From: an uncultured bacterium
Lineage (GTDB): Bacteria > Patescibacteriota > Patescibacteriia > Magasanikbacterales > UBA922
Direction: 5' to 3'
DNA: 53,211 nucleotides
Assembly (NCBI GenBank): GCA_937861125.1
Contig: CALMAY010000039.1
Coordinates: forward strand, 1 to 53,211
Shown: positions 1 to 16,308 of the stretch, piece after piece
Layout of the letters: every line of letters starts with the position of its first letter
How positions within the stretch are numbered: the stretch's first letter is position 1
The notes under the pieces: model-generated
The model's input: only the letters and a program-made list of their open reading frames with translations
The model's database searches: none
What the model was told of the DNA's origin: nothing
Program-made: the position numbers and the translations under genes

Positions 1-139
1 ACGGCGAGGATGGTGCGCAGGGTGAGCCCGGCGCCACGGGTCCGCAGGGTCCCGCCGGACAGAACGGCGAGGATGGTGCGCAGGGTGAGCCCGGCGCCAC
101 GGGTCCGCAGGGTCCCGCTGGACAGAACGGCGAGGATGG
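1..139 (+). repeat. 63-bp tandem repeat, about 2.2 copies, encoding collagen-like G-X-Y units
   Basis: Units at 1-63 and 64-126 differ at one base (gcc/gct). A third partial unit starts at 127. In frame 3 each unit reads [21 protein letters not shown]. Confidence 0.9.
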
Positions 140-833
140 GGCTGACGGGGCTGACTACCCCGACTGCCATCTCGCGGGCAATGCCTGCGAAAGCGGGTAT
201 CTCTGCGACAGCCGCGGTCGCTGTGTCCCGCCCCTGCCCGATGAGGGTTCGGGGGAAGAAGGTTCCGGAGAAACGGATCTGTGCCCCGAGAGCGATGAGC
301 TCGAGGAGCCGGTGACGTACTACGGCGATATCGACCGCGACGGGCGTGGCGAGCCCGATGTGGAGATCGCGGTATGCGAGACGGAGGCGCCGGCGGGTTA
401 CACCGCCAGTGCAACGGGCGACAATTGCCCGCTTACTCCCAACGCCGACCAGGTCGACACCGACGCCGACGGACTCGGCGACGCTTGCGACACCGTCGTC
501 ACGCCCCCACCGACCACCTCAACCATCACCGTTCAGGTACTGTGCTCGGCCTTGTGCCAGGCGCATATCTACTACGGGGTAGAGGATCAGATGGGGTTGT
601 CTCCTTTCACGTTCGAGGTCCCTCGGGACCAGGCCTGCGAGAGTGGGATCGAAGTGAAGGGGCGCGTACCATCCGGCAATTGGTCGTGGTACGGTGATGC
701 TGGTGCACCGACGATGAGCACGGTTTCCGTGTATATCGAAGGTGTTCGGAGGTCAGGGGTACTTCGTGTTCGTCCTTGGACGAACTCGGAGGGTAACCTC
801 TACTTCTCGCCCGCGTTGCTCGGCTGTCCGTAG
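3..833 (+). CDS. Collagen-like (G-X-Y) / thrombospondin type-3-like repeat, Cys-containing extracellular protein; 5' end lies outside the window
   Basis: Frame 3 is open from nt 3 to the TAG at 831-833. My translation begins [21 protein letters not shown] x2 and continues into the listed ORF 312..833. That ORF contains [24 protein letters not shown], a TSP3-type Asp-rich motif. The listed Arg-rich ORF 10..315 is the wrong frame of the same repeat. Confidence 0.6.
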
Positions 834-1120
834 CCGGCTCGTCACCGGCAACCCGTTCGAGCCGGGCAATGGTATCGATATGGCGGTGACACCCGCCCCG
901 CTCGTTCACTCGAGCTGCAACGAACTTATTCTCCCACCGAGTTATGTCGAGGAGTTGGCATCAGTAATGATGCGTCAGATTTCGCCTGTCATAGGAGGGC
1001 GGCGGAGTCGGGGTTGTGTCAAAAGCAACCCCATTCCGATTATGTTCATAATCACTAATGTGATTGTGAAAAGATGAGGAAGTTGTTGAATGCAGAATGA
1101 GGAATGAATAATTCAGAATG

Positions 1121-1150: not shown

Positions 1151-1178
1151 TGCTTTTTTGGCTGGGTTGTGGTATAGT
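1150..1178 (+). promoter_or_regulatory. Candidate sigma70 promoter TTGCTT-N17-TGgTATAGT
   Basis: The TGTGGTATAGT motif at 1168-1178 recurs at 13968, 20210 and 47215. It lies inside the N-terminal extension of ORF 1135..1611, which favours the ATG at 1207. Confidence 0.4.
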
Positions 1179-1206
1179 TTTTTTATCATCTTTTACTCTT
1201 ATTCAT

Positions 1207-1611: not shown

Positions 1612-1673
1612 ATGCCCTGCAAAATGTTGTTTTTTCAAAGATCATTTGATCATCCGATCATATGATTTTTTAT

Positions 1674-1702
1674 TTGTAAAAAGAACGGAGATAGACTATA
1701 CT
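1674..1702 (+). promoter_or_regulatory. Candidate promoter TTGTAA-N17-TATACT
   Basis: The -10 element ends 13 nt before the ATG at 1716. There is no SD, which implies a leaderless or very short-leader mRNA. Confidence 0.4.
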
Positions 1703-1715
1703 ATGAGCAGTTTTT

Positions 1716-2804: not shown

Positions 2805-2805
2805 T

Positions 2806-4311
2806 ATGTCTCTTGTATCTGATCAAGCACAACATGTACAGTCGCAAAGCTTTTTTTCGTGGCGTTGGTTTTTTGTGCTGTCCGTTATGGCTGCGGTCGC
2901 GACTGTGCTGTTTGGTCCTATTTGTATTGTTGTGTTGGTGGTATTGTTTTTGGGATATAGTATTTATGTCAAACCAGAAATCGGACTCTATATTATGGTA
3001 GCTCTCTCACCAATGATTGGTTTGACAGTGACACCTGATTCTGTATTTTCTTGGTTGGGTTTTTTGCACACACCGTGGTCATGGTATGCACCGCTTGTAG
3101 ATGTTTGGACATTGTTTTTTTTACTTGTTTTTTTTATTCGTACGTGTGTTGATTTGCTACAGACAAAAGAAAAGAGAATTATACTGCCGGGTGTATGGTG
3201 GTATCTTGCCTTTTTAATTTCTGCGTATGTGTCTTTACTTCATCTTCCGCATGAATTATTTTCTGATGGGGTCAAGTATCTTATTCGATTTCCATTGTTT
3301 GTGTATGTTGGCTATATTGTTGTTGGTATAAATACGATTACAAGAAAAAGTATACTTTTGCATGCATTACGTGTGTTCTTCTTTGTTGGATTGTTTGCTG
3401 CTATCTTAGGGGTTAGTTCACTTTTGGTCAATGCGTATCATGTCATGGGGCTGACACGAGCGGTGCCGATATCATTATTTGGTGTTAATTTTTTTAATTT
3501 TTCCAATGATATTCGATTTGGTCATATTTTATTGGCTGAGTTTTTGACTCTTGTGTTGCCTGTTGGTATCTACTTGATGTATACAGCACAAGCTGTACAA
3601 AGTCGTCGTTGGTATGCGTTGGGTAGTTTTTTTGTGTTTTTGGTGTGTATTCTTACATTCTCTCGAGCGGGTTGGTTGACACTCGGATTTCAAGTATTTT
3701 TAGGTGCGCTTGTGTTGCGTAGACAGATACCTTGGCAACAGGTATATCGATGGGTGCCTGTAGGACTATTGTGTTTATCTGTCCCTATATGGTATATGTC
3801 TTTGTTTTTGCAAAGTAGTATTGTTTCATCTTCCAATAGTGCACGACTTGCATTGACTGAAATTGGTTGGCACTTCTTTTTAGATCGCCCATTGTTTGGG
3901 CAGGGGGTTGGTATGTATACAGTACTTCTGAAAGATGTCTTTTATTTTACATCACAGTTTGGCGATCCAATTGATGCGCATAGTATTTTTACCAAGATTA
4001 GTGCTGAGCAGGGTATGTTTGGATTGGTCACGTTTGGTCTATTTGTGTTGTGGGTGTTACATGTTATTTTTAGACGTCTTATTGATGAGTCATTTTCAGA
4101 TGAGGCACGTATGGCAGCGATTGTATCTTTGTTTTTAGTTATGACACCGTTATTTTTTCAATTATTTAATACGCAGTATTATTCCGCGCGTATGTGGGTG
4201 CCATTTTTATTTGCGATGGGGTTGAGTATCGTTCATAAAACAGATAAACGTTTATCGAGTATATCAATTTCTTTTGTTGAAAAAAAATCGGCTGTAGATA
4301 TCAATTTTTAA
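2806..4311 (+). CDS. O-antigen ligase / Wzy_C family polytopic membrane protein
   Basis: Many TM segments. Contains FSRAGWLTLGF and DAHSIFTKISAEQGMFGL motifs characteristic of the Wzy_C family. Confidence 0.8.
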   Translation: MSLVSDQAQHVQSQSFFSWRWFFVLSVMAAVATVLFGPICIVVLVVLFLGYSIYVKPEIGLYIMVALSPMIGLTVTPDSVFSWLGFLHTPWSWYAPLVDVWTLFFLLVFFIRTCVDLLQTKEKRIILPGVWWYLAFLISAYVSLLHLPHELFSDGVKYLIRFPLFVYVGYIVVGINTITRKSILLHALRVFFFVGLFAAILGVSSLLVNAYHVMGLTRAVPISLFGVNFFNFSNDIRFGHILLAEFLTLVLPVGIYLMYTAQAVQSRRWYALGSFFVFLVCILTFSRAGWLTLGFQVFLGALVLRRQIPWQQVYRWVPVGLLCLSVPIWYMSLFLQSSIVSSSNSARLALTEIGWHFFLDRPLFGQGVGMYTVLLKDVFYFTSQFGDPIDAHSIFTKISAEQGMFGLVTFGLFVLWVLHVIFRRLIDESFSDEARMAAIVSLFLVMTPLFFQLFNTQYYSARMWVPFLFAMGLSIVHKTDKRLSSISISFVEKKSAVDINF

Positions 4312-4316
4312 TATAT

Positions 4317-5408
4317 ATGAAAAAGAAAGTGGTTGTACATATTATTCCTCGATTTTGTTTTGGTGGGGCCGAACGATTGTTGGTGTTGTATGCGCAGATG
4401 TATGATACTGCGGTGTATGATATGCATGTGGTGAGTTGTGTAGAGGATGGTGAACTCAGAGCTTCGTTTGATGGTCTTCCTGTCTCTCTCTTTGTCGGAT
4501 CTCGATTACAACATGGCGGGAGGTGGGGCGCGTGGCGTGCTGTACGGCGCTATTTGGATCGTGTGCAACCAGACATTGTACACACACATTTACTCAGTAG
4601 TGATCTGATTGGGTTTGTCTACAAATATATATATCGTCGTCGTGTACAATGGGTGAGTACACAGCACAATGTCGAGGATACGCGGCCGTGGGTATATCGG
4701 TTTCTTTGGCGTATGATTCTGCCTGCTGCGGATGCGGTGATTGCGGTTGCACCACGAGTGTATGAGTTTGCTCGCGACACATTTGGTGTATCAGACAAAC
4801 GTCTCCATGTGGTAAATAACGGTATCTTGGTGCAAAAGTGGAAACCACTTCTCTCACAGCCGGTTTGCCGACAAAAGGTATTGCAGATTGCTTCTATCGG
4901 AAGACTCGAGATACAGAAAGGTCATGTGTATGCACTTCGCGCATTGGCTCAATTGTCAAAAGATATTTCGTGGCACTATCATGTCTATGGTGATGGTATG
5001 TTGCGTGAAGAATTACAACAGTTGGCTCATGAATTATATATTGATGATCGTATTACCTGGCATGGTGTGGTGAATACACTTGAACAGGATCTTGGGTCTG
5101 TTGATATTGTCTTTCAGCCATCATTGTTTGAAGGGTTGAGTTTGGTGATTTTGGAATCTATGGCAGCGGGACGCTGTGTCGTGACGACACCGGCTGGGGG
5201 AGAGGGTGTGATCACACATGGGGTGGATGGATATATTGTGCCATCCATGGATGTAGAGATGATGAGTGCGCAGCTCACAACACTGGCACTGGATCGTCAG
5301 CAGATCATTCGTACTGCCGCTGCAGCAGGTGTGCTCGCACAACGTGAATTTGATGTGTCAAAAAATATGCACGGTATAGAAACAGTCTATCAGCAATTGC
5401 TTTCGTGA
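4317..5408 (+). CDS. Glycosyltransferase family 4
   Basis: VVHIIPRFCFGGAERL N-terminus and EGLSLVILESMAAGRCVV motif. Confidence 0.85.
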   Translation: MKKKVVVHIIPRFCFGGAERLLVLYAQMYDTAVYDMHVVSCVEDGELRASFDGLPVSLFVGSRLQHGGRWGAWRAVRRYLDRVQPDIVHTHLLSSDLIGFVYKYIYRRRVQWVSTQHNVEDTRPWVYRFLWRMILPAADAVIAVAPRVYEFARDTFGVSDKRLHVVNNGILVQKWKPLLSQPVCRQKVLQIASIGRLEIQKGHVYALRALAQLSKDISWHYHVYGDGMLREELQQLAHELYIDDRITWHGVVNTLEQDLGSVDIVFQPSLFEGLSLVILESMAAGRCVVTTPAGGEGVITHGVDGYIVPSMDVEMMSAQLTTLALDRQQIIRTAAAAGVLAQREFDVSKNMHGIETVYQQLLS

Positions 5409-5409
5409 T

Positions 5410-7419
5410 ATGGTGTTGAGACACGCACAGACATCTTTGTTTTGGTTCATTGCCGCTGTGGTCAGTATGGCGATGTGTCTATCTGTGTCGTTTACCTTTC
5501 TCTCTACATCAGCAGAGGAGTTTCCAAAAACGGCAAACTATTTTCTCAAATGGTCTATGACGGCTGCTGAGATGGAAGAGCTCTCCAAGTGGGATGTGCT
5601 GGTGCTCGATATGGAGCAGCAGATTCAAAATCCGCAGTATCTCAAAGAGTTGCGAAAACGAAATCCAGATATTATTTTGCTTGCATACATCACCCCTCAG
5701 GAAATTCGTACCGATGCGGTCGGTGGATATAGTCAGATGCGTGATCGTCTCGCGCGAGGTATCTCGGCACAATGGTATCTGGTGGATGACAAAAAAACGT
5801 CATACAGCTTTTGGCCTGGTACTGTCATGCTCAATGTGACCAATCATGCTCCGCTTATTGGTGGGCAGCGATTCAATGAATATCTCTCCACGTTTGTTGC
5901 TGATGAGATTATCGATACTGGACTATGGGACGGTGTGTTTTATGATAATGCGTGGAGTGATGCGACGTGGTTTACTGGAAACAAAGTTGACTACAATCGT
6001 GACGGAAAAGCAGATACAGATATTGATAAAAAATGGTATGCGGGAATGAATAGTCTCTATGAAATGACGAGAGAAAAAACACCAAAAGGGACAATTATTG
6101 TTGGTAATGGTCACACAAAAGGATACACTGAATCACTCAACGGCAAGATGATTGAAAATTTTCAGATACATGGGTGGAATGACATCATGAAAGTGTATGC
6201 GCAAAATCAGGCTGCAGAGCACAAGCCGCGTGTCAACATCGTCAATGGAAATACGGGAAATAAAAATACTCCTACGGCGTATCGAAGTATGCGGTATGGA
6301 TTGGCGAGTACGTTGTTGGTTGGCGACGATGGATATTATTCGTTTGACTATGGTGCCCAAGACCATGGACAAACGTGGTGGTATGATGAGTATGATGTGG
6401 ATCTGGGCGAGCCAGTCGGCTCTGCTACGTCACCCACAGGACAGACATCATTTGCAACAGGTGTGTGGCAGCGTGAATTTGCGCAGGGGATAGCAGTGGT
6501 CAATAGTGGTAAGTCATCCAGCAAAGTAACGCTACCGGGTGAGTATGAAAAAATTCGAGGAACGCAGGATAAAACCGTCAATGACGGTGCAATTGTCTCA
6601 TCCGTGACTGTACCTGCTCAGGACGGGCTGCTGCTCATGAAAACAATTCAGCGTTTGGACAACATCATCTATACCAATGGTGACTTTGCACGGTTTTTCA
6701 AACACAGTGGTGATCGTGTTCGCAACGGTTTCTTTCTCTATGACAGTATTGCACCAGGTGGTGCGCAGGTGGGGCGTATAGACATCGATGGTGATGACAA
6801 ACTCGATAGTGTCGTCGTGACAAAAAATCGCATCACGGTTCGTAGAAACAATGGAAAATTACTCGCACGTTTTCGTCCATACGGCGTCTCATTTTCATCT
6901 GGGATACGGATTGCATTTGGAGACATTGATGGGGATAATAAAAAAGAGATGATTGTCGCACCAGGTGCAAAAAATCTTCCGGTCAGAATATATGATTACA
7001 CTGGTTCAAAAGTGGGTGAGGACTGGTATCCGTTTGGCAAGTCGTATGCGGATGGATACTCTGTCGCTCTGTCGCAACAGTCAGACGACGCGCGTGTTGC
7101 CATCGGCAGTAGTAAAGGATCTGTCTCCGTCTTTGACCCACAGACACGTAAACAGGTAGGTACATCGTGGAAAGCGTTTGGCGGCAATAGTGTGCCATAT
7201 GTGGCCATGGGAAACATTGATACCTCTGCCGAAGAGGAGATTGTCGTAGGCGCTGGCAAAGGTGGTGGCGCCAATGTCAAGGTATTTTCTGTGAGCGGAA
7301 AGGTGCAATCAGAGTTTGTGGCCTATACCACGATTGTCTCGCCTGGACTACCCGTGCAGCTCGCTGATGTGGACAGTAATGGGGTGCTTGATATTGTGAC
7401 GCTGAGTAGTGGGTTTTGA
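5410..7419 (+). CDS. Secreted or membrane-anchored protein: N-terminal glycoside-hydrolase-like (GHL-type TIM barrel) domain plus C-terminal FG-GAP/VCBS-like repeats
   Basis: N-terminal hydrophobic segment. WDVLVLDME...NPDIILLAYITPQEI resembles GHL families. Repeats DIDGDDKLD, DIDGDNKKE and DVDSNGVLD are FG-GAP-like. Confidence 0.55.
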   Translation: MVLRHAQTSLFWFIAAVVSMAMCLSVSFTFLSTSAEEFPKTANYFLKWSMTAAEMEELSKWDVLVLDMEQQIQNPQYLKELRKRNPDIILLAYITPQEIRTDAVGGYSQMRDRLARGISAQWYLVDDKKTSYSFWPGTVMLNVTNHAPLIGGQRFNEYLSTFVADEIIDTGLWDGVFYDNAWSDATWFTGNKVDYNRDGKADTDIDKKWYAGMNSLYEMTREKTPKGTIIVGNGHTKGYTESLNGKMIENFQIHGWNDIMKVYAQNQAAEHKPRVNIVNGNTGNKNTPTAYRSMRYGLASTLLVGDDGYYSFDYGAQDHGQTWWYDEYDVDLGEPVGSATSPTGQTSFATGVWQREFAQGIAVVNSGKSSSKVTLPGEYEKIRGTQDKTVNDGAIVSSVTVPAQDGLLLMKTIQRLDNIIYTNGDFARFFKHSGDRVRNGFFLYDSIAPGGAQVGRIDIDGDDKLDSVVVTKNRITVRRNNGKLLARFRPYGVSFSSGIRIAFGDIDGDNKKEMIVAPGAKNLPVRIYDYTGSKVGEDWYPFGKSYADGYSVALSQQSDDARVAIGSSKGSVSVFDPQTRKQVGTSWKAFGGNSVPYVAMGNIDTSAEEEIVVGAGKGGGANVKVFSVSGKVQSEFVAYTTIVSPGLPVQLADVDSNGVLDIVTLSSGF

Positions 7420-7466
7420 TGAAAAATAAAAGATATTGAGATTGAGATTAAGATCGTGGCATAATT

Positions 7467-7494
7467 AAAAGAGACGCTGTGATGCGCCTCTTTT
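7467..7494. terminator. Bidirectional hairpin terminator between convergent genes
   Basis: aaaagagacgc / tgtgat / gcgcctctttt (one mismatch), flanked by A and T runs. It is nested inside a 17-bp outer inverted repeat, 7435-7451 with 7494-7510. Confidence 0.55.
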
Positions 7495-7519
7495 TAATCT
7501 CAATCTTAATTTTGTTTTT

Positions 7520-8689
7520 TTACATTGCCGCACTAGTCATAGACATTGGTGCTGGCTTTCTGGTCTGCAGATCATCATACAACTCAGACGTCTGTTTCCC
7601 AATACGTTTCCAGTCAAACTGCTTTTTTACTTGTTTTTTGTACATTTCACCAAGTGTTTGTTTTTCACTCTCTGTTTTGCTCAGTATTTCAGACATACGC
7701 TCTACAATGGTCGTTGTGTCATTGGTAGAGCAGTAGTAGGCTGGATCAGTGATCAGTTCACAGTGTTCTGGAATATCTGAGACGAGAATCGGCAGTCCAT
7801 AGCTCATCGCTTCAAGCACGGTGATCGGCATACCCTCGAGTTTGGACATGTGGACATAGAGCCCGGCATGTGTGTAGAGTTCTGCCAGAGCAGTGCCGTA
7901 CTGTGCACCAGTAAAGATGATATCAGCACGTCCGTTTGCGAGTGAGTGGAGATATGATGCGTACGAATCAGTGTAGTGTCCACTTCCCACCACAACCAGT
8001 TTCATCTTTGATGATATACTGTTGTTTGTTTTTGCTTTGATGAATGCAGCGATAGCATGGTGGATCGCCTTGTTTGAGATCAATCGTGAGACAACAAGGA
8101 TATACTGTTTTGGTACTAGGTCAAATGTATCTAGTGTTGCTGTGGTTGTCTGTGCAGCATATGCTGGTACACCGTTTGGGATATACTCAGCTTCTTTGCT
8201 ATACGTATCACGAATGTATTGACGGATGGTTTTACTGACTGCGATGGTCTTGTGTGGAAAGGTACATGCTGCCCACTCACCAACCCACAGAGCAATCTTT
8301 GCAAAGTACCCCCATTTTTCTTGCTTGCGATCGATCGAGTGAAATGTCGATACTACCATGATGTGTGGGGTAAAGATACGAGGAATCCATGAGAGGAGGG
8401 AGGGGCCTACTGCGTGGAAATGGATTACATCTACACCGCTGTACATGGCGTGCAAAAGGGCGGTAAAGGTGTGTGTGATAGCATCCAAATGCTTGGTTTT
8501 GATACCTGCTGTGTGTTTGAGTTCAATCCCATCAATCATGCCATCCTGCTGTCCAGTGAACCAGGTGCGTCCATAGATGCGTACCTCATGTCCCAAAGAC
8601 ACCAAAGCACGGCTGAGCTCCTCTACGTGGCGCTCAACACCACCCTGTTGTACAGGGATGCCTTTTTGTCCAAGCATGGCGATTTTCAT
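7520..8689 (-). CDS. Glycosyltransferase family 4
   Basis: Starts MKIAMLGQKGIPVQQGGVERHVEELSRAL at an internal ATG. Contains the KLEGMPITVLEAMSYGLP motif. The upstream ORF extension overlaps the predicted promoter. Confidence 0.85.
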   Translation of the reverse strand: MKIAMLGQKGIPVQQGGVERHVEELSRALVSLGHEVRIYGRTWFTGQQDGMIDGIELKHTAGIKTKHLDAITHTFTALLHAMYSGVDVIHFHAVGPSLLSWIPRIFTPHIMVVSTFHSIDRKQEKWGYFAKIALWVGEWAACTFPHKTIAVSKTIRQYIRDTYSKEAEYIPNGVPAYAAQTTTATLDTFDLVPKQYILVVSRLISNKAIHHAIAAFIKAKTNNSISSKMKLVVVGSGHYTDSYASYLHSLANGRADIIFTGAQYGTALAELYTHAGLYVHMSKLEGMPITVLEAMSYGLPILVSDIPEHCELITDPAYYCSTNDTTTIVERMSEILSKTESEKQTLGEMYKKQVKKQFDWKRIGKQTSELYDDLQTRKPAPMSMTSAAM

Positions 8690-8720
8690 ATGGGACGAGG
8701 TTAGCTGAATAAAACAGATA

Positions 8721-8749
8721 AGTATAGCACAAAAAAGACCTCCTGTCAA
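8721..8749 (-). promoter_or_regulatory. Near-consensus promoter TTGACA-N17-TGcTATACT
   Basis: Reverse complement of tgtcaa (8744-8749) and agtata (8721-8726) with exactly 17 nt between them. About 30 nt upstream of the ATG at 8689. Confidence 0.55.
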
Positions 8750-8879
8750 GGGGTCTCTGGTTTCATCTGTGGATTGTTTTTTTAGCTTATTTTAGTCAAA
8801 AAGCTATCAGTATCCTCAGCATCCTTAGTCACTTTAGCACCCTTAGATTACGGCTTTGCTACCATCCTACTGGAGAATA

Positions 8880-10780
8880 GTACCAAGGCTGTCTCGGACG
8901 CGTGTGTTTCATGACACGCGCCCGAGGAGGAGCCCTCTTCACATCAGGAGCTGCGGTTCGCTCCTGTTCGTTGTCTTACCTCCCCAACCGCGGGGAGGGG
9001 GCGATTACTCGACTGACGGCCAATCGAGCACCGGCCCGTCGCAGGTGCGACCTCCGCCCGGCCATGTGGTGTTGCTGTCTGCGACGAAGCAGCAGCTACC
9101 CGTCATGGGGTACGTGCTCGGCGAACCGGGCGCGCCACCGGTGCAGGCGGGAGCGCCGACCATGCCGAGGGTAAGCTCGGTAAAGGTCGTGGGCAATTCG
9201 GTCGGCCAGACGGGCGGCTCCACGCGGGGGTCGCATGCGGTCACCGACGACCAGCACCAGTAGGTGTCGGTGTCGGGCGCGGCACAGATCGGATTCTCGG
9301 CGCAGTCGGCGGAGTCGGCGCAGTCGGCGAGTTCATCGCCGTCGTTGTCGAAACCGTCGTCGCACACCTCGTCGGGCATCGGGCAGGAGGGGGTGCCGAG
9401 GCAGTCCTCATCCCAGCAGTCGCCCCAGCCGTCGAAGTCGTTGTCGACCTCGTCGTTGCACGTGACTTCCGTCTCCGGAAGGTCACATGCGCCGCCGTGC
9501 TGCGCATCGTACTCGCGGACGCAGATCGCGTCCCACGAGGTGGCGCAGCAGTAGCTGTCGCCGAGTTCGATGCAGACCTCGAGCATTCCTACCGAGTCCG
9601 AGCACCCAGCGCCGGTCGTGTTGAGCTCGCAGCAGCTGGTTGTGGCCGTACAGAACGACGCATTGTCCGCACACTCCGGATCGGCGCAGTCGAGGAGGCC
9701 ATCCTCGTCGTTGTCGATGCCGTCGTAGCAGATCTCAACGCCGAAGTATACGCAGCTGCACTGACCGAAGTCGCTCTCGAGGATGGGTTCGGAGCAGGAG
9801 CGGTACACTCCGTCGCCCCACCCGTTGCACATGTCGACGGGGCAGTCGGTGGCGAGGGTGCAGCACGTCGAGGTGCTGGTATCCGCGACACAGGTGCCGG
9901 TTCCGTTGCAGTAGCTGCCGACGTTGCATTCCTCGTCGAACTCGCCGCAGGACGTTTCCGCCGGGAGGGGCTCAGCACCCCAACCGACTTCCGGATCGCA
10001 CGAACGCTCGAAGCACTCGCTGGCCGGGGGTCCGGGATCGGGGGTGGTCAGAGCTCCGACGCATTCGCCGTCGAAGCAGAAATCACCCGCGGTGCACGCG
10101 TTGCCGTCGTTGCACCCGATGCCCATGCAATCGAGGTCGGCGCAGTCGGCATCGCCGTCTGCGTCGTCGTCGGTCCCGTTGTTGCAGTTCTCGGTACCGT
10201 CGCTTGCGAGGTCACCCACGCAGGCGAGGTCGACGAGACCCACACAACCCATGAAGCTGTCGCCCGACGCCGGGTCCTCCAGCTCCTGGCACGTGCCGTC
10301 GGCGACCATACAGGCCGCGATCGGCGCGTCGGTTGCGTTGACGGCCGCGATCGTGCACTGGCTCGAGCTGTTACACCCGATACCCAGCGCCTGCTGGATC
10401 GTGTTGTTGTCGCCACCTCCGGGCGAACCGTCGGTGGCGCTGTCCGGCGCCTCGGAGTTCTCGTCGCCGCTCATGCAGGCGGGGAGGGTGAGGAAGACGA
10501 TTGCCGCGAAGAAAGTCGCGGCGAGCTCGATCGTTCGGTGGGTGATCAGCCCTTTCCAGGAATTGCGCGTCATGAGTTGTAACTCCGTTTGTGACGCGTT
10601 GTTGAACCGAGACAGTAGACGACACTATGTCGCCACCATCTCACCGCTGGCTTTTGGCCATTGGATTTTGTGAAGAGAGCACCCTTGCAATCAGGTGCGC
10701 TCCATCAGGTGTAGTGGCAATTGATATTGTCAAAACACACGATAGAACGACCCAGGTTGAAGGGACAGCTGAATATATCA
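8880..10780. other. Embedded high-GC island (foreign-looking DNA) carrying a single gene
   Basis: 39/60 G+C at 9241-9300. Sampled 60-nt lines rise from ~45% to ~62% G+C around 8880 and fall back gradually over 10600-10780. The island is flanked on both sides by low-GC genes. Confidence 0.8.
9005..10573 (-). CDS. Cys/Asp-rich secreted lipoprotein with repeated CxDGxDNDxDGxxDCxDxxC modules
   Basis: Signal peptide with lipobox-like LTLPAC. Modules include CYDGIDNDEDGLLDCADPEC, CNDEVDNDFDGWGDCWDEDC, CDDGFDNDGDELADCADSADC and CNNGTDDDADGDADCADLDC. A GGAG lies 9 nt upstream of the ATG. The plus-strand ORFs here are GC-rich shadow frames. Confidence 0.7.
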   Translation of the reverse strand: MTRNSWKGLITHRTIELAATFFAAIVFLTLPACMSGDENSEAPDSATDGSPGGGDNNTIQQALGIGCNSSSQCTIAAVNATDAPIAACMVADGTCQELEDPASGDSFMGCVGLVDLACVGDLASDGTENCNNGTDDDADGDADCADLDCMGIGCNDGNACTAGDFCFDGECVGALTTPDPGPPASECFERSCDPEVGWGAEPLPAETSCGEFDEECNVGSYCNGTGTCVADTSTSTCCTLATDCPVDMCNGWGDGVYRSCSEPILESDFGQCSCVYFGVEICYDGIDNDEDGLLDCADPECADNASFCTATTSCCELNTTGAGCSDSVGMLEVCIELGDSYCCATSWDAICVREYDAQHGGACDLPETEVTCNDEVDNDFDGWGDCWDEDCLGTPSCPMPDEVCDDGFDNDGDELADCADSADCAENPICAAPDTDTYWCWSSVTACDPRVEPPVWPTELPTTFTELTLGMVGAPACTGGAPGSPSTYPMTGSCCFVADSNTTWPGGGRTCDGPVLDWPSVE

Positions 10781-10820
10781 TATAGAACAGGTCTTGTCAA
10801 TAGCACTTCTTGTGAATAAA

Positions 10821-10844
10821 AATACTACCCAAATGGGTAGTATT
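10821..10844 (-). terminator. Intrinsic terminator of the DUF11-like gene
   Basis: aatactaccc / aaat / gggtagtatt. On the minus strand it is followed by tttattc. Confidence 0.6.
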
Positions 10845-10862
10845 AGGAGTATTTTTTGTTAT

Positions 10863-12686
10863 CTACTGCACAATTATACCTTTGTCTGCACCGATCTCAT
10901 CTTTTGGAATCGAGATGTCCAATGCCGGGGCAGTTTTTTGTATGTGCACTTGTGTAAAGGCATCTGTTGCACGTATGTCGATATTTTCAAGAAGTTTTGG
11001 AGAGGTATTTCGTTGTCCTTCAGATGGTGTCAATGCAAGTTCTATATAGATACCAGCTGTGTCCCTCGCCTCGAGTCGGGACAGGTTCCAGGTGACCTTC
11101 TTGGATGATGGGGTATATACTGGCGCGTCACCGTGACTGACACTGGTGCGTCCTGTGTAGGAAACGTGGTCAGGGAGTGTGGCTGAGAAACGTACATCAT
11201 CAAGCCCGTTGGTACTATTGTTAATAGCAATGAGCGCCCAGTATTTGGTCTCTTCACCAACCACTGGTGGTAGTGGTCCACGGCCGAGTTGATCGCCCTC
11301 TTCTGTGTAGTAGCGACTCTCAGCGCTGAGCGTGACGAGGGTGCTGATAGGGATCGGTGTAACAGGCACAGCAGTGCGGATAGTCGCGTTGTCTGTCCCA
11401 GCGATTGTTGCTATGACAAATGGGTCAGGGGAGAGTGAGATGTTGGTCCCAGAGTCAACACGCAGTGGTGCGTCGATACGCAGTGTCATAGATCGCTCTG
11501 TGTTTGGTTCTAGTGTCTCAAATGGTGCTGGTACTGTGTATGTACCATTTTTGATAGTACCGCCATTTTCACTCGTGAGTCTGATGAGACTCATACTCGT
11601 ATTGGCAAGCGGTATTTCAATGCGAATATTGTGTAGTGTTGTTTTTCCAGTGTTTTTGGTAGTAATGGTTAATTCTCTTTCTTCGCCTGGATTTATTGGG
11701 TTTGTGGTGTTCCATGCTGAAGAAACAGAGAGTGATGGTTTGGTGATTGAGATAGCTGTTTGCGCACTTCGTTGAGCGACACGTCGGTTATTTGGGTCTA
11801 TGAGCAGTGGTGTAAGTATGATAGATGATACGGATTCTTTTTCTATTACCATGGTACCAGTAAGTATCGTAGTTGTTTTTGGTGCGAGGTTTTCTATAAT
11901 CCATTCATCTCCAACAACAGTGATATCTGATGATATTGTGGGAACAAACCGAACGCCATCCTGTGCGAGAGGTACTATTACTTTGGTGGCAGTGTGGTGG
12001 TCGTCATTTGTGATTTCAAGTGTAAATGCAGATGGAGCACCGAGCACTACTGATGCTGCGGTGGTGAGTTTGCTATTGACTACTGAGCCGCGGAGGTTTT
12101 GGATAATGGTTCGTATTTTTTGCTCTGGTAGTTGACTGTTTTCTTGGCGGTAGCGAATAACAGCGCTGACATGATGTTCTACATCAACCGATTCAAACAA
12201 AAATCCTTCGATGGTCACTGATTGCGTTTCATTTGGTTCAAGAATACCAAGTGATGTATCAATAGATCCGTGTTCGACAATGAATCCATGTGGCATTTCA
12301 AATGACAAAAGAGAGTCATGAAGTGCTGTCTGTGCATTGTTGGTTATCGTTGCTGTGTAGGCCACGTGTTCACCACTGCGGATAATTCCTGTTTCATTGT
12401 GTGCCTCTGTGGTAAGTCGCAGATCCACAAATCGTGCTACGGTTGGATCATAGGTAAACCAGATGTATGCACTCAGTGCAAGGATAATAGAGGCAAATAC
12501 CAGACTTAAATCAAAGAAAAAAAGTTTTTTTGCATGGACGAAATTGAGATGGTATTTTTGTTTGTAGTACATCTCACCCGCATGGATAGGGGACAGTAAC
12601 AATGCCAAGGTGAAGTGGTGGGGAGCTGAGATGGCCTTACGTGGCTTTAGGTTTTCTGAGACGTATTTCATAATTCGGAAGGACAC
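10863..12686 (-). CDS. Membrane-anchored surface protein with DUF11/CARDB-like repeated beta-sandwich domains
   Basis: N-terminal TM segment (FFFDLSLVFASIILALSAYIWF) followed by repeated T/S/N-rich Ig-like segments. GTG start at 12686; an alternative ATG is at 12671. Confidence 0.55.
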   Translation of the reverse strand: MSFRIMKYVSENLKPRKAISAPHHFTLALLLSPIHAGEMYYKQKYHLNFVHAKKLFFFDLSLVFASIILALSAYIWFTYDPTVARFVDLRLTTEAHNETGIIRSGEHVAYTATITNNAQTALHDSLLSFEMPHGFIVEHGSIDTSLGILEPNETQSVTIEGFLFESVDVEHHVSAVIRYRQENSQLPEQKIRTIIQNLRGSVVNSKLTTAASVVLGAPSAFTLEITNDDHHTATKVIVPLAQDGVRFVPTISSDITVVGDEWIIENLAPKTTTILTGTMVIEKESVSSIILTPLLIDPNNRRVAQRSAQTAISITKPSLSVSSAWNTTNPINPGEERELTITTKNTGKTTLHNIRIEIPLANTSMSLIRLTSENGGTIKNGTYTVPAPFETLEPNTERSMTLRIDAPLRVDSGTNISLSPDPFVIATIAGTDNATIRTAVPVTPIPISTLVTLSAESRYYTEEGDQLGRGPLPPVVGEETKYWALIAINNSTNGLDDVRFSATLPDHVSYTGRTSVSHGDAPVYTPSSKKVTWNLSRLEARDTAGIYIELALTPSEGQRNTSPKLLENIDIRATDAFTQVHIQKTAPALDISIPKDEIGADKGIIVQ

Positions 12687-12704
12687 AAATTAAAAGGATA
12701 CAAG
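12679..12704 (+). repeat. Copy 1 of the GGNYACAA-ATTAAAA-GGATACAAG motif
   Basis: aaggacacaaattaaaaggatacaag. Overlaps the GTG start of the DUF11-like gene and abuts the left 37-bp inverted-repeat arm. Confidence 0.7.
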
Positions 12705-12708
12705 TACA

Positions 12709-12745
12709 CAATACCAATATACGAATGCATGCGAATTTAACGAAT
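12709..12745. repeat. Left arm of the perfect 37-bp inverted repeat
   Basis: caataccaatatacgaatgcatgcgaatttaacgaat. It contains the stop codon of the enclosed gene. Confidence 0.95.
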
Positions 12746-13144
12746 ATGGTGTTTGAGATTGTGTCTTTTTATCTTAATTATACGGTGTGGTTTCAAATAT
12801 GTTTGTCTAAAATTAACCAGAATAGCTAGGGGTATATTTATACATTGAAGGTATCGTTGTGTTTGGAGATAGTCTTCTTTGGTGAGAATCGTTTTTGCTT
12901 TTAGTTCTATCAAAATGTATTCATTATTTTCATTTTTTACAATAAAGTCCACAATATTTCCTGTGCGCCCAAGTGGATATTCTCGTACGTATTGTATGCG
13001 TTCTTGCTTCAGTACTGTTTCGAGAAAATTACCATATTGTTTTTCACGGCAGTATCGATCCAATGTATTATGTGTTGTAAAGAGAAGACCAGCAATGCGA
13101 TATGAAAAATTCCTATGAATGAGATCCTCTCCTTTTGTATACAT
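12737..13144 (-). CDS. GxxExxY family protein (PD-(D/E)XK nuclease fold)
   Basis: YGNFLETV ... IVDFIV ... ILIELKA ... QTQRYL ... LAILVNF matches the GxxExxY / PD-(D/E)XK layout. Confidence 0.75.
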   Translation of the reverse strand: MYTKGEDLIHRNFSYRIAGLLFTTHNTLDRYCREKQYGNFLETVLKQERIQYVREYPLGRTGNIVDFIVKNENNEYILIELKAKTILTKEDYLQTQRYLQCINIPLAILVNFRQTYLKPHRIIKIKRHNLKHHIR

Positions 13145-13149
13145 AGCAC

Positions 13150-13186
13150 ATTCGTTAAATTCGCATGCATTCGTATATTGGTATTG
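13150..13186. repeat. Right arm of the perfect 37-bp inverted repeat
   Basis: attcgttaaattcgcatgcattcgtatattggtattg is the exact reverse complement of 12709-12745. It ends 5 nt from the start codon at 13144. Confidence 0.95.
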
Positions 13187-13191
13187 CCTGT

Positions 13192-13220
13192 ATTATAGTA
13201 TATGCACCCAATTCAGTCAA
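13192..13220 (-). promoter_or_regulatory. Near-consensus promoter TTGACT-N17-TATAAT driving the GxxExxY cassette
   Basis: Reverse complement of agtcaa (13215-13220) and attata (13192-13197), with a 17-nt spacer. The expected start site (~13185) coincides with the outer end of the right inverted-repeat arm. Confidence 0.55.
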
Positions 13221-13250
13221 AACAAAAACCCCGCACAGATATGCGAGATT

Positions 13251-13583
13251 TTATAGAGTTTCAGTGGTTGGAGTATCCTCTGGTTTTGTGAATTTCTTTT
13301 TGATGAGCTTGGCGCTTGGGGAGTAGAGAGTGTTACGTATTTTCCATTTCTCTACATACTGTCCAATCCCTTGTTTTTCGGTCTTATTTTTGACTGTTGT
13401 TTTGACTTGGGACCAGCGGACAAGTGCTTCAAAGTTGAGTTTGTATCTACCGCCTACTACTACATAGGTGAGTTCTTTGTCTTTGATGGCACGACGAATA
13501 GTCTGTGTACTGACACCAAACAACTTCGCTGCCTCAGAAATGGAGACACGTATGATTTCTTTCTGTACCTCTGTATCAGACAT
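13251..13583 (-). CDS. Excisionase/MerR-type helix-turn-helix DNA-binding protein
   Basis: ISEAAKLFGVSTQTIRRAIKDKELTYVVVGGRYKL is a typical HTH_17-like motif. The start at the internal ATG (MSDTEVQ) is supported by the promoter position. Confidence 0.7.
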   Translation of the reverse strand: MSDTEVQKEIIRVSISEAAKLFGVSTQTIRRAIKDKELTYVVVGGRYKLNFEALVRWSQVKTTVKNKTEKQGIGQYVEKWKIRNTLYSPSAKLIKKKFTKPEDTPTTETL

Positions 13584-13608
13584 ATGTTTGTATAGGGAAA
13601 CGTTGACA

Positions 13609-13637
13609 ATTGTACCATATTTTTGAGGTTTTGTCAA
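13609..13637 (-). promoter_or_regulatory. Near-consensus promoter TTGACA-N17-TGgTACAAT
   Basis: Reverse complement of tgtcaa (13632-13637) and attgta (13609-13614), with a 17-nt spacer. About 25 nt upstream of the ATG at 13583. Confidence 0.55.
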
Positions 13638-13804
13638 GAGAGATGATTTGTGAAAGAGGAAGAATGGGAATATTTTTTGTATACGTTTGTTTATACAAAT
13701 TTACAATATAAACTATAAAATAGAAGCATGTTGAGATGGAAAAAATGGTAAATAGCCTAGTATGTTCATATTTTTGTATACGCTTGTGTAGACAAAATAT
13801 ATCA

Positions 13805-13837
13805 AAGGGCACAAATTAAAAATTCCAAGGATACAAA
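13805..13837 (+). repeat. Copy 2 of the motif
   Basis: aagggcacaaattaaaaattccaaggatacaaa. Confidence 0.7.
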
Positions 13838-13901
13838 AAAACTAAAAATCACAATTTTATTAATATATTTGAAATTATACTTTGATGATTGATTATATTG
13901 T

Positions 13902-13932
13902 TTGTACCTTGTATCTTTTAATTTGTGCCCTT
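13902..13932 (-). repeat. Copy 3 of the motif (inverted)
   Basis: Its reverse complement reads aagggcacaaattaaaagatacaaggtacaa. The 15-nt core gggcacaaattaaaa is a perfect inverted repeat with 13807-13821. Confidence 0.7.
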
Positions 13933-13949
13933 TTCTCGAATTGCTCTAT

Positions 13950-13978
13950 TTGATTTTCTAGACTGTATGTGGTACACT
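13950..13978 (+). promoter_or_regulatory. Candidate promoter TTGATT-N17-TGgTACACT for the sigma-factor gene
   Basis: TGTGGTACACT at 13968-13978 belongs to the recurring TGTGGTAYAST motif. Confidence 0.35.
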
Positions 13979-14045
13979 TATTCCCGTTATGTAGGACGTG
14001 GGTTGTTACTGAATGTAGCGCTTTTTTTATTCTACCAAACACTCT

Positions 14046-14600
14046 ATGCTGAAGCTCAAGGAAAAGCGACTGCTCTACTTGATCAAAGTACACAAAGACG
14101 CAGATGCTTTTGCGTCTCTTTATGATACTTATGTTGGGCGGGTGTATCGATTTGTCTATTTCAAGGTATCCAATCAGCAAGACGCTGAGGATATTACCGC
14201 AGATCTATTTTTGAAAGCATGGAAGTATCTCACATCAGATGACACCAAAGAGGTGGGGAGCTTTAGCGGGCTGATCTATGATATGGCACGCAATGCGACG
14301 GTGGATTGGTATCGCAAAAATGCTCAGTCCCATATTTGTGCATTGGACGATATTATGCATATGAGTGACGGGAGTGATGTGGCTCAGACTACGGCTGATC
14401 GGTTTGACAGCGCAGCACTCTTGAAGTGTATAAAAAGTATGAAACATGAGTATCAAGAGGTGTTGATTCTCAAGTATGTCGAAGAGCTGTCTTTGTCTGA
14501 AATAGCCACGCTTCTTGGGAGAAGTCAGGTATCGGTGCGGGTGACACTGCATCGGGCGACAAAGAAGTTGAAGGAGATTGCTGGAAAGGATACAAATTAA
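14046..14600 (+). CDS. RNA polymerase sigma-70 family (ECF-type) sigma factor
   Basis: Region 2 (FASLYDTYVGRVYRFVYFKVSNQQDAEDITADLFLKAW) and region 4 HTH (LSLSEIATLLGRSQVSVRVTLHRATKKL). Confidence 0.85.
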   Translation: MLKLKEKRLLYLIKVHKDADAFASLYDTYVGRVYRFVYFKVSNQQDAEDITADLFLKAWKYLTSDDTKEVGSFSGLIYDMARNATVDWYRKNAQSHICALDDIMHMSDGSDVAQTTADRFDSAALLKCIKSMKHEYQEVLILKYVEELSLSEIATLLGRSQVSVRVTLHRATKKLKEIAGKDTN

Positions 14601-14618
14601 AAATTCCAAGGATACAAG
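14585..14618 (+). repeat. Copy 4 of the motif
   Basis: aaaggatacaaattaaaaattccaaggatacaag. It contains the sigma-factor stop codon (14598-14600). Confidence 0.7.
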
Positions 14619-14710
14619 ATGGTGTATGGGGGGACTGTAACAAAATCCCAATTTCTGCGTCTACTACAGTATAGACATTAAAATCTGTGTTATCGTCAAA
14701 TCAGTGGTTT

Positions 14711-15916
14711 ATGTCAAAAGAGCTCAAAGCACAACTAAAATCTCTCAAACATACACATAGTTCGTTTACCCCACGGGCTACTTTTGTTTCTCAAACACGC
14801 ACCTCTTTGATGCGCTCTATTGCAGTAGAACAGGCAGCTCATACGCCGTCATCTTCGTTTCTCAAGACACAGTCATTTTTTCATATTTTTGTCCCTCAGA
14901 CACTCCAAGTAGCACTACGTCCTGTTATGACACTGGCTTTGGTTGTCGGTGTGTCTATGGCTGGATTTAGTCTGAGTGCATCTGCGAGTAATACGAGTTT
15001 GCCAGGAGATCTGCTCTATGGAGTCAAACGCGCGACAGAAAAAACTGAAGCGGTGATCATCTCAGCAGTGGGTACCAAGGCAGATAAAACAGAAATGCTT
15101 GCCAAGCACGCAAAGGAACGTGCCAATGAAACAAAAGAATTAATTGTACAAAACAAGACAGAACTAGTCGCGGAGTCAGTTGCCTCTCTCAAAGAAGCTG
15201 TTGCAGAGGTGAGCCAACACGCCAATGATGTGGTAGAAAATGATACCAGTGCGATGGCTGTGACAATTGCTCAGGTGGCTGATGTACAACAAGAAATTGC
15301 GACGACACTCAGTGAGGCGATTGATAGTGTGGCTCTCTCTGACAATGCTACATTTGTGATGGCGCAGGTGACCGATGCAGTACAGACAGTCGTCAATGAG
15401 AGTGTTTCTGTCGCACAGGCAATTGTAGAAAAACAAAAGAGTGGTGAACTTAGTGGGGTGGATGTAGAGAGTGTGAATGAGGGTGTCAAAAACACATTGG
15501 ATACTGCTGTGACGAGTATCGCACAGACGACACAGAGTATCGAAGCGGTGATTACACAGCAAACAGCTCTTGTGGAGGTAGCTCCAGTAGTAGGTGTGTC
15601 TACTGAGATTGTCGGTACTCCTGTATCGACAGGAGAAGTCTCTACTAGTAGTACAGCTCCAGTAACTAAAGCGACTACCACACCTACTGCAATGGTACCA
15701 AATACATTATTTTCTTCATCAACACTTCCTATTATCACTGAAGTAAAGCAGACCACTGAAGCTGCGGTACAACAGACACAGGTACTCGTTGAAGAGGGGA
15801 GACTGCTCGAAGCGATAGAAAAGACAAAGACAGTAACAGAGTCGATTAATCAGGTGATGCAGGATGTAGCAATACAGAGTGCGGTGATTAGTGAGGCTGG
15901 GTCGGTTAAAAATTAA
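14711..15916 (+). CDS. Single-pass membrane protein with a DUF5667-like domain; putative anti-sigma or sigma-associated factor
   Basis: Lies immediately downstream of the ECF sigma gene. A central TM segment is followed by LPGDLLYGVKRATEKTE (DUF5667-type motif) and a long helical, A/V/T/Q-rich region. Confidence 0.55.
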   Translation: MSKELKAQLKSLKHTHSSFTPRATFVSQTRTSLMRSIAVEQAAHTPSSSFLKTQSFFHIFVPQTLQVALRPVMTLALVVGVSMAGFSLSASASNTSLPGDLLYGVKRATEKTEAVIISAVGTKADKTEMLAKHAKERANETKELIVQNKTELVAESVASLKEAVAEVSQHANDVVENDTSAMAVTIAQVADVQQEIATTLSEAIDSVALSDNATFVMAQVTDAVQTVVNESVSVAQAIVEKQKSGELSGVDVESVNEGVKNTLDTAVTSIAQTTQSIEAVITQQTALVEVAPVVGVSTEIVGTPVSTGEVSTSSTAPVTKATTTPTAMVPNTLFSSSTLPIITEVKQTTEAAVQQTQVLVEEGRLLEAIEKTKTVTESINQVMQDVAIQSAVISEAGSVKN

Positions 15917-16308
15917 CGATCAAATGATCGGATGATCGAGAGAATTAGTTGGTCGTATGATCATGTATTATTTACAATAAGTGTTCTGTCTGGCGGTAAA
16001 ACGGTGTATGTTCACGTTCTGTGTTACATCGCCCTTCGTCCGCCATACAGAAACAATCGGGCCCATGCAGGTATGTGTGTTTACACACAAATCAGCGTGG
16101 TTTAACAACAAGTGCAGTGATTCCCTAGCAAGGGCGCTGTCACCAGAGGTGTAATGGCCCTTTGGTCGTGTTTTGACAAAAATTAAAGGTCGATCTTACT
16201 GAACAAGTAAGAGTCAAAAACATTTATATGCTACGAGTATATTGTCGGACGCTCTGCCTTTATTGTAGAGTCGCGCTGTACAAGTACTCATTTATATCTA
16301 AAATATTT

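Follow-up and report, generated by a model that had tools for sequence, protein, structure and literature searches.

The stretch of DNA analysed here, which we call the window, is the 53,211-nucleotide contig CALMAY010000039.1 of assembly GCA_937861125.1, from an uncultured bacterium of the Magasanikbacterales in the Candidate Phyla Radiation (CPR). At positions 8880-10780 it holds a GC-rich island carrying one gene, on the minus strand, for a cysteine- and aspartate-rich protein of 522 residues (W522); the site is part of a cell-surface glycan and surface-protein locus. The origin and age of this gene, and the persistence of its composition, are the subject of this report. The features of the island and its borders are listed below in the direction of transcription; L016, L017 and L020 are loci from sister genomes, and P0248 and P0012 are the homologs of W522 from L020 and from a further contig, L019.

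10821..10844, minus strand: intrinsic-terminator-like hairpin (10-bp stem, then a T run) that ends the upstream DUF11 gene and forms the host-side border; an equivalent is present in the empty site of L017.
10772..10800, minus strand: host-type, sigma-70 promoter-like site of the GC-rich gene, TTGACA-17-TATATT with a TG (11/12 matches).
10640..10766, minus strand: structured 5' leader, a long irregular hairpin of ~32 bp just after the -10 box (85% identity to L020, minimum free energy (MFE) z-score, consensus fold).
10574..10639, minus strand: less conserved part of the 5' untranslated region (UTR), with a small hairpin showing two compensatory changes and the Shine-Dalgarno sequence GGAG at 10583-10586 (alignment, consensus fold).
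9005..10573, minus strand: coding sequence (CDS) of W522, a 522-residue Cys/Asp-rich putative lipoprotein; G+C 0.66, G+C at third codon positions (GC3) 0.85, net charge ~-93 (NF033662; orthologs P0248 and P0012).
10475..10573, minus strand: predicted signal peptide with the lipobox-like LTLPAC (Cys33), from reading of the sequence; MTR..GLITH and PAC are kept in P0248.
10127..10186, minus strand: acidic double-disulfide repeat 1, CNNGTDDDADGDADCADLDC (NF033662, regular expression, DNA repeat family D1).
9671..9730, minus strand: acidic double-disulfide repeat 2, CYDGIDNDEDGLLDCADPEC (NF033662, regular expression, D1; predicted local distance difference test score (pLDDT) ~87-90).
9401..9460, minus strand: acidic double-disulfide repeat 3, CNDEVDNDFDGWGDCWDEDC (NF033662, regular expression, D1; pLDDT ~90-94).
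9302..9364, minus strand: acidic double-disulfide repeat 4, CDDGFDNDGDELADCADSADC (NF033662, regular expression, D1; pLDDT ~90-94).
8976..9004, minus strand: GC-rich hairpin directly 3' of the stop codon, variable between the window and L020 (alignment and fold).
8843..8975, minus strand: conserved GC-rich structured 3' element of three hairpins (7, 13 and ~16 bp) with no U tract (90% identity to L020, fold).
8750..8842, minus strand: low-GC spacer from the 3' element to the GT4 promoter, partly common to L016 and L020, with a 45-nt insertion relative to L020 (alignment).
8721..8749, minus strand: GT4 promoter TTGACA-17-TATACT; its ortholog is the only promoter of the L017 empty site (promoter scan, alignment).

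It is clear that the island departs from the composition of its host. Its G+C content is 64.1%, whereas 1.9-kb background windows beyond 11 kb average 41.0% (standard deviation 2.7, maximum 45.4), giving z = 8.6, and its strand-symmetric tetranucleotide distance to the background gives z = 12.2. At the left edge the G+C content climbs between 8850 and 8880, and at the right edge it drops from 0.6 to 0.3 between 10540 and 10780. Every other open reading frame (ORF) of the window has a GC3 of 0.25-0.49, and codon choice in the GC-rich gene is inverted relative to the host; the fraction of GAC is 0.81 against 0.21 in host genes, that of TGC 0.85 against 0.18 and that of ATC 1.00 against 0.24. Both G-ending and C-ending codons are enriched, and the pattern equals that of P0001, a protein from a true 63% GC organism. 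The GC-rich stretch at 8843-8975 is a conserved structured non-coding element outside the CDS, and the less conserved non-coding DNA beside the CDS is also raised in G+C (0.51-0.63, against 0.29-0.40 further out), which may point to a cause at the regional or RNA level, and not to matching with tRNAs alone. As a separate observation, a tRNA-Glu with the anticodon CTC, which reads GAG, lies at 50988-51060 on the minus strand beside a tRNA-Met; GAG makes up 74% of the Glu codons in the GC-rich gene and 40% in host genes.

An earlier note on this DNA, made from its letters and a list of ORFs, had described a jump to 62-65% G+C, a single convincing gene at 9005..10573 on the minus strand with a GGAG 9 nt upstream of its ATG, the GT4 promoter and the DUF11 terminator at the positions listed above, and an absence of integrase, tRNA and repeats at the borders. 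All of these observations hold, and the tetranucleotide and codon-usage comparisons that it proposed are those just given. An integrase was not found among the neighbours scanned for domains, no tRNA lies near the island, and its borders contain no direct or inverted repeats and no convincing target-site duplication. Of the marks of a recent island, atypical composition and codon usage are present, and the mobility signatures (integrase, tRNA target, flanking repeats) were not found in these scans. Of the features of an integron-type cassette, an integrase was not found among the scanned neighbours; a conserved structured element does stand on the 3' side, and the gene has its own promoter. 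At its two ends (10772-10800 and 8721-8749, minus strand) the inserted unit starts with a TTGACARGA promoter, and the L017 empty site has one such promoter; the paired starts could be the remnant of a duplication from the original insertion, or may be two functional promoters or chance.

W522 contains 53 Cys, 64 Asp and a single Lys. In its N-terminus, MTRNSWKGLITHRTIELAATFFAAIVFLTLPAC, n- and h-regions can be recognised; Ala stands at -1, and the Cys, which is conserved, is the first of the protein (residue 33) and lies in LTLPAC; the Pro at -2 is non-canonical, and the motif in P0248 is LFTPAC. Lgt and LspA were not seen among the scanned ORFs of the window, a 53-kb part of the genome. Four modules at residues 130-149, 282-301, 372-391 and 404-424 fit the regular expression C-x-[DN]-x-x-[DN]-[DN]-D-x-D-...-D-C-x-[DN]-...-[DE]-C, and a DNA repeat family of four copies coincides with them. 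W522 scores 92.1 bits (E = 1.2e-26) in four stretches against the NCBIfam model NF033662, for which the cut-off is 41, and it has the unit of that family (~30 residues with four Cys and an Asp/Asn run); with 79 bits for P0248 and 66 bits for P0012, both orthologs exceed the cut-off as well. W522 itself is a new member of this known repeat family. No Pfam family matches W522, and PF11617 (Cu-binding_MopE) gives no match even at E <= 10. The best named relatives of W522 are 'MopE-related' proteins of Polyangiaceae and Sorangium, and Sorangium and Chondromyces proteins align with ~56% of P0248 at ~32% identity.

Residues 369-397 of W522 align with the C-rich domain of teneurin-4 (PDB 7PLP) over 29 residues, a weak match (E = 0.008), and a second weak match, of residues 282-314 to teneurin-m (8fia), is not significant (E = 0.51). 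The 1.5 Å structure of the teneurin-4 C-rich domain, from a cell-adhesion protein, has three calcium ions bound by an acidic motif with thrombospondin T3-like coordination (PMC9058538). In W522 the acidic ligand pattern E-x-x-C-x-D-x-x-D-N-D-x-D-x-x-x-D-C-x-D-x-D-C is kept in 4/4 modules with conservative D/N/E swaps. A structure model of the whole protein has a mean pLDDT of 53, and only the repeats are confident (87-94). The earlier note had seen a signal peptide with the lipobox-like LTLPAC, dozens of cysteines, at least four CxDGxDNDxDGxxDCxDxxC modules in a Myxococcota style and, on this basis, an extracellular calcium-binding or adhesin-type protein. The motif with Cys33, the 53 Cys, the four modules (by both regular expression and NF033662) and the likeness to Polyangiaceae and Sorangium proteins are borne out, and the predicted function gains support from the fourfold NF033662 match and the teneurin-4 alignment.

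Judged from its sequence, W522 would be exported and is probably lipid-anchored at Cys33, with a short acidic linker that would hold it off the membrane. The surface that it would then present would be braced by disulfides and loaded with calcium, at a net charge of ~-93; up to 26 disulfides are possible if all 52 Cys after Cys33 pair. We infer that W522 serves as a surface adhesin or recognition protein, its host being a Magasanikbacteria-like CPR bacterium. A role in attachment to a partner cell is suggested because it would fit the high ratio of nonsynonymous to synonymous divergence (below), the setting among surface-glycan genes and the strain-variable Cys-rich extracellular proteins of CPR bacteria (PMC4736985). 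Those described from CPR Peribacteria are large (~1,650 residues) and weakly Myxococcus-repeat-like, and a role in attachment has been proposed for them (PMC4736985).

The host-type promoter of the gene, TTGACA-17-TATATT, sits in low-GC DNA ~200 nt upstream of the W522 ATG. A promoter-like sequence is found at the same position in the alignment with L020, and in L019 the sequence TTGACA-N17-TATGGT lies ~190 nt before the GGAG-ATG of P0012; a GGAG like the one 9 nt before the W522 ATG also precedes the ATG in the homologs from L020 and L019. From the low-GC promoter through the leader, Shine-Dalgarno sequence and ATG into the first residues of the signal peptide, the window and L020 are homologous without interruption, and the homology resumes after the stop codon. 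The 5' leader is 85% identical to L020 over 136 nt (MFE z = -3.2) and the 3' element is 90% identical over 134 nt (MFE z = -5.3), with a G+C content of 0.61-0.63 in both genomes; the coding flanks are only 68-81% identical in nucleotides, so that the leader and 3' element are the best conserved sequences of the locus. Consensus folds, drawn from two sequences only, contain few compensatory or wobble-compatible changes, most pairs being invariant. Neither element matches Rfam, in which nothing relevant was found at E <= 5 in 8700-10900 and for which the only gathering-level hits in the whole window are two tRNAs. W522 would be expressed from the host-type promoter via the conserved structured leader, and its CDS would be followed by the conserved structured 3' element. 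These two elements may be regulatory or stabilising RNA, or alternatively may be the recombination anchors of a cassette.

The compositional jump alone could suggest an assembly chimera, in which a high-GC fragment of another organism was joined into a CPR contig; this was one of the two options given in the earlier note. Three other assemblies bear on it. An ENA assembly contig of 55.7 kb (ERZ724552, L001) is identical to window 1-17419 at 100%, the Logan assembly of SRR5676435 (L002) is identical to window 3814-12738 at 100% and spans both island junctions, and that of SRR5676447 (L003) spans the inner junction of a second GC-rich island (island A, below). Both junctions are thus reproduced in independent assemblies of other runs. 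Furthermore, 11 contigs on record carry the neighbouring GHL15 protein, the same arrangement is kept in L020, which comes from another study and differs at the species level, and promoter, Shine-Dalgarno sequence and terminators fit together. On these findings we give a chimera next to no credence. The gene calls of L001 and L002 contain, in place of W522, the following ORF.

9497..10582, plus strand: shadow ORF of 361 residues, opposite W522.

Exact look-ups in the protein collection did not find the 522-residue and 607-residue products; the first is absent because the caller took the opposite-strand ORF, and the second is unmatched because the annotated start differs. The same wrong-strand error may hide similar genes in other CPR genomes.

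The slot between the DUF11 and GT4 genes could be followed in sister genomes. L016 and L017/L018 were found through a protein search with DUF11, and L020 (NCBI GCA_020049755.1) through an exhaustive representative protein search; scans of genome and metagenome contigs with the DUF11 neighbour returned only relatives of <= 43% identity. In L017/L018 (DUF11 63% identical) the slot is empty, and the DUF11 stop codon, its terminator, one TTGACA-17-TATACT promoter and the GT4 start are all contained in 116 bp (L017 8605-8720). In L016 (DUF11 81%) it is filled by a low-GC Methyltransf_11 gene on the opposite strand (11823-12449, minus strand). In L020 the order is DUF11 C-terminus (80% amino acid identity), P0248, GT4 (68%) and GHL15 (87%), which is the same slot with an ortholog in place. 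P0248 (511 residues) is the sole full-length collinear match of the exhaustive search, aligning with W522 residues 7-455 at 41-42% identity, and shares with W522 the MTR..GLITH...PAC N-terminus and the domain order; its gene has a G+C content of 0.64 and a GC3 of 0.78 inside flanks of 0.43-0.48. P0012, on the 1.9-kb contig L019, shows 38-40% identity, with a CDS G+C content of 0.65-0.73 and 0.43-0.45 in the 250 bp upstream. The surroundings of all three full-length collinear homologs (W522, P0248 and P0012) are therefore low in G+C and CPR-like in style, and not one of the three comes from a high-GC genome. When P0248 was used as the query of a second protein search, no further same-slot orthologs were found.

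These data bear on the other option of the earlier note, a single and very recent acquisition from a high-GC donor by this genome only. The extreme and uniform composition, the absence of the gene from the sisters L016 and L017 and the Myxococcota-like modules are what such an event would leave. The check for an empty site gave a mixed answer, since the slot is empty in L017/L018 and holds the methyltransferase gene in L016 but is occupied in L020; a recent island would be absent from the orthologous site of all close relatives. The low-GC relative L020 carries a diverged ortholog, 41% identical in amino acids and saturated at synonymous sites, in the same slot at an equally high GC3, and its flank identities of 68-87% exclude that it is a mis-assembly or the same population. 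The earlier note had named such a relative as the finding that would speak against a recent transfer. The gene is joined to a promoter of host type and to a conserved leader, and the donor search found no near-identical protein among 5.8 billion, the best collinear hits being 38-42% identical and from low-GC contexts. A very recent acquisition is thus most improbable, and this part of the earlier note is not upheld.

The divergence between the window and L020 bears on the age of their split. In the flanks the synonymous divergence (dS) is 1.1 for GHL15, 1.5 for the DUF11 end and 2.1 for GT4, with a ratio of nonsynonymous divergence (dN) to dS of 0.07-0.12; for the island gene dS is ~1.06, dN is 0.65 and dN/dS is ~0.6. 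Four-fold degenerate sites at conserved residues are 42% identical in the island pair and 42-48% in the flanks, where the random expectation is 32%, and of the sites at which both copies have G or C, 11/37 in the island and 13/55 in GHL15 are C/G mismatches. Because four-fold identity and the share of C/G mismatches are like those of the flanks, the island alleles appear to be as old as the flanks. Since C<->G transversions are a minor class and yet are frequent here, there would also have been ample time for the commoner G/C to A/T mutations. Those island sites are still 72% GC, or 72-85% over the two alleles, and GC3 of the whole gene is 0.78-0.85, with the flanks at 0.40-0.47. Two ortholog pairs diverge at synonymous sites 2-4 times less than their flanks do, which fits either silent-site constraint or more recent gene flow.

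The protein would therefore be one that evolves fast while its GC-rich codon usage has stayed unchanged through the turnover of its synonymous sites. The fact that GC-rich usage survived this turnover implies that some force keeps the gene GC-rich. We would rank selection at the nucleotide or mRNA level first, then GC-biased gene conversion in a recombining locus, and then repeated import; exchange of alleles within a GC-rich cassette pool would be a further alternative. The reading that we favour, and hold to be probable if far from certain, is that the island is a surface adhesin cassette which evolves fast and has long been resident in a variable slot of the glycan locus, with its G+C content actively kept, rather than a fresh import or an artefact.

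Several points weigh against this reading. Saturation limits the dS estimates. A count of changes polarised with P0012 as the outgroup was mostly GC to AT (23 vs 3), which is compatible with slow decay from a GC-richer ancestor; as evidence the count was set aside as uninformative, being dominated by outgroup composition and saturation. A single same-slot ortholog (L020) was found, and the equally close or closer sisters L016 and L017 are without the gene. The gene trees of the flanks (5410-12686 against L016, L017 and L020) disagree, with GHL15 joining the window to L020 (87%, vs 61% to L016), the DUF11 end grouping the window with L016 (89%) over L020 (80%), and GT4 grouping L020 with L016 (79%). 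The surface locus reads as a recombination mosaic, and its history may not be one of simple vertical descent. The mechanism that would keep the G+C content high is a proposal; the expression, lipidation, calcium binding and adhesion of W522 are all predicted, and the low pLDDT makes the whole-protein model a poor one.

Similar GC-rich genes for Cys-rich secreted proteins also occur elsewhere, in six other related CPR loci. Genes of 59-72% GC for Cys/Asp-rich secreted proteins, inside DNA of 38-45% GC, have the following coordinates outside the window.

L006 9223-10989, minus strand.
L007 ~100-2229.
L008 1-2217.
L013 1-753.
L016 20512-21279, minus strand.
L017 16525-17394, minus strand.
L019 318-1820.

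The distant CPR loci fetched through the DUF11 gene, L006, L007, L008 and L013 among them, have islands of 60-70% GC. L006, which like L019 shows the same GC contrast, encodes a 588-residue lipoprotein-like protein with thrombospondin-3 repeats that gives 181 bits to the Myxococcus MtsC model, below its cut-off. L007, L008 and L013 share a radical-SAM gene that is preceded, immediately upstream, by a gene with 'CDGVDNDCDG' repeats and a GC3 of 0.76-0.87. For the pair L007 and L008, dS is 0.3-0.4 in the island (GC3 0.77-0.83) and 1.2 in the adjacent gene (GC3 0.41-0.44). At this radical-SAM slot the flanks are 83-87% identical in all pairs, whereas for the island protein the identity is 91% in one pair but 33% between L013 and L007. 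The orthologous lipoproteins of L016 and L017 (59% amino acid identity) have a GC3 of 0.65 and 0.67 in flanks with a GC3 of 0.24-0.42, synonymous sites being saturated. As a side observation, the repeat gene of L008 (71-2217, from a Falkowbacteria metagenome-assembled genome (MAG)) is broken up into three ORFs that overlap, lie in different frames and all go out of frame within one and the same repeat unit, as in a repeat mis-assembly or a pseudogene; the L007 copy is intact save for masked N runs.

Homologs with the composition of their own genome were available as controls from L004 (63% GC), L021 (63%), L022 (50%) and the DPANN archaea L009 and L010. The DPANN homologs had been considered as a parallel to the CPR genes, a comparison rejected for their native low GC3, and they were used as a control instead. 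Homologs at native composition mean that amino-acid content does not force the G+C content. Amino-acid composition was accordingly rejected as the cause, GC3 being independent of residue content and low-GC homologs existing. The GC contrast appears specific to these CPR lineages.

A wider generalisation may be drawn, to which we lend rather less than even weight. There could be a class of Cys-rich, calcium-binding, fast-evolving CPR surface genes held at a GC3 of ~0.65-0.85, in genomes at ~0.3-0.4, by an active locus-specific process such as selection for GC-rich mRNA, biased conversion or targeted repair; these cassettes would be bounded by structured RNA elements and would have been overlooked partly through wrong-strand gene calls.

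The second GC-rich island of the window, island A (window 1-~950; L001 ~2100-5500), has 62-70% GC over ~3.3 kb and lies ~8 kb away across glycan genes. One of its features is seen in the window itself.

1..836, plus strand: 3' part of a second GC-rich gene, frame 3 from position 3 (ORF, domain hits).

Island A encodes a 153-residue membrane-anchored coiled-coil protein, a 246-residue secreted protein ending ...VGWRF, an outer-membrane beta-barrel-like terminus that is odd for a single-membrane CPR cell, and a 324-338-residue collagen-like (G-X-Y repeats) lipoprotein with thrombospondin-3-like and Cys-rich segments and a lipobox-like FVAC. The start of the window falls inside perfect 63-nt tandem repeats of the collagen region. 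Beside island A, a 158-residue coiled-coil gene contains a 33-nt tandem duplication (1324-1385, plus strand; 97% identical; repeated peptide LRTELKGD). The surface genes of the window include many GT4 glycosyltransferases, a Wzy_C ligase and the GHL15/FG-GAP protein, and the rest of the window encodes RNase Y, PBP2, PilT and a DUF5667 protein beside an extracytoplasmic-function (ECF)-type sigma factor. Homologs of the DUF11 neighbour are named mostly from Candidatus Magasanikbacteria, with some from Falkowbacteria and Parcubacteria.

Alternatively, GC-rich alleles that had already diverged could have been imported repeatedly into a hotspot slot from a GC-rich pool, with no force maintaining their composition. 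Such a pool might consist of high-GC bacteria (Myxococcota, for example), which might be the hosts of the symbiont, or of a GC-rich mobile element. Several findings speak for such replacement: the slot is polymorphic among close sisters (gene, methyltransferase or nothing), the radical-SAM slot combines uniform flanks with island proteins at 91% or 33% identity, and the flank phylogenies are mosaic. At the level of single modules the best hits are to Polyangiaceae and Sorangium proteins, codon usage equals that of P0001, and the outer-membrane-type ...WRF protein of island A would be useless in a single-membrane cell. Set against these, W522, P0248 and P0012 all have low-GC surroundings, a TTGACA-type promoter and a long leader; an import from elsewhere would come with a start region of its own, and yet the homology of the window to L020 is continuous through it. 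Integrase, tRNA and border repeats were not found at the island, and the search of 5.8 billion proteins gave no close donor. We regard repeated import as unlikely. For the pair of the window and L020 two readings remain, that of maintenance in place and that of alleles which diverged in a GC-rich setting and then entered the slot separately. Long residence of the cassette, possibly with exchange of alleles among CPR bacteria, is favoured over repeated import because 3/3 homologs are in low-GC contexts and the homology of the start region is continuous.

It is routine to interpret sharp GC islands as contamination or as recently transferred DNA, whereas the anomaly described here has outlasted a full synonymous turnover and recurs in several CPR lineages. 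Composition alone would mislead screens for horizontal gene transfer and the decontamination of MAGs, and could even delete such genes. The presence of two compositional regimes side by side in one small genome also offers a test case for mutation bias, selection and biased conversion. Furthermore, the GC-rich genes encode what are likely to be host-contact proteins of episymbionts whose partners are mostly unknown; if opposite-strand calls are common, such proteins will be missing from protein databases.

The persistent and recurrent GC contrast, together with the conserved RNA-like elements that flank the gene, makes this locus a variant of known island and surface-locus phenomena of which no report was found, a search of the literature having returned none of GC-rich islands in Patescibacteria and nothing about the accessions of the samples. 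With the NF033662 proteins, many of them 'MopE-related' and from Polyangiaceae, Sorangium and Chondromyces, W522 shares its four C-x-D-G-x-D-N-D-x-D-G-x-x-D-C-x-D-x-x-C repeats; the proteins of Myxococcota and ordinary bacteria have the composition of their own genomes, whereas the full-length collinear relatives of W522 come only from low-GC, CPR-like surroundings. Over 29 residues W522 resembles the teneurin C-rich domain (7PLP) and thrombospondin type 3 repeats in its Cys spacing and acidic ligand pattern, but the similarity in sequence is weak (E = 0.008), the Cys of the bacterial repeat number four and not six, and calcium binding is predicted here. W522 is like the Peribacteria proteins in being secreted, Cys-rich and variable (PMC4736985). 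Those proteins are encoded in a 58.5% GC genome for which no compositional contrast was reported (PMC4736985), whereas the W522 gene stands 25 points above its genome.

With a genomic island of recent transfer the locus shares sharp compositional borders, foreign codon usage and a patchy presence among relatives; it differs in that no integrase, tRNA target or flanking repeat was found, and in having a host promoter, a conserved leader and an old ortholog at the same G+C content. Surface-antigen and O-antigen (rfb-type) loci are known for persistently atypical G+C content, the classic case being low-GC clusters for sugar synthesis in mid-GC enterobacteria. Like these, the W522 locus is a hypervariable surface locus of mosaic ancestry whose atypical composition persists without amelioration; unlike them, its anomaly is reversed in sign and is confined to one protein gene and its UTRs.

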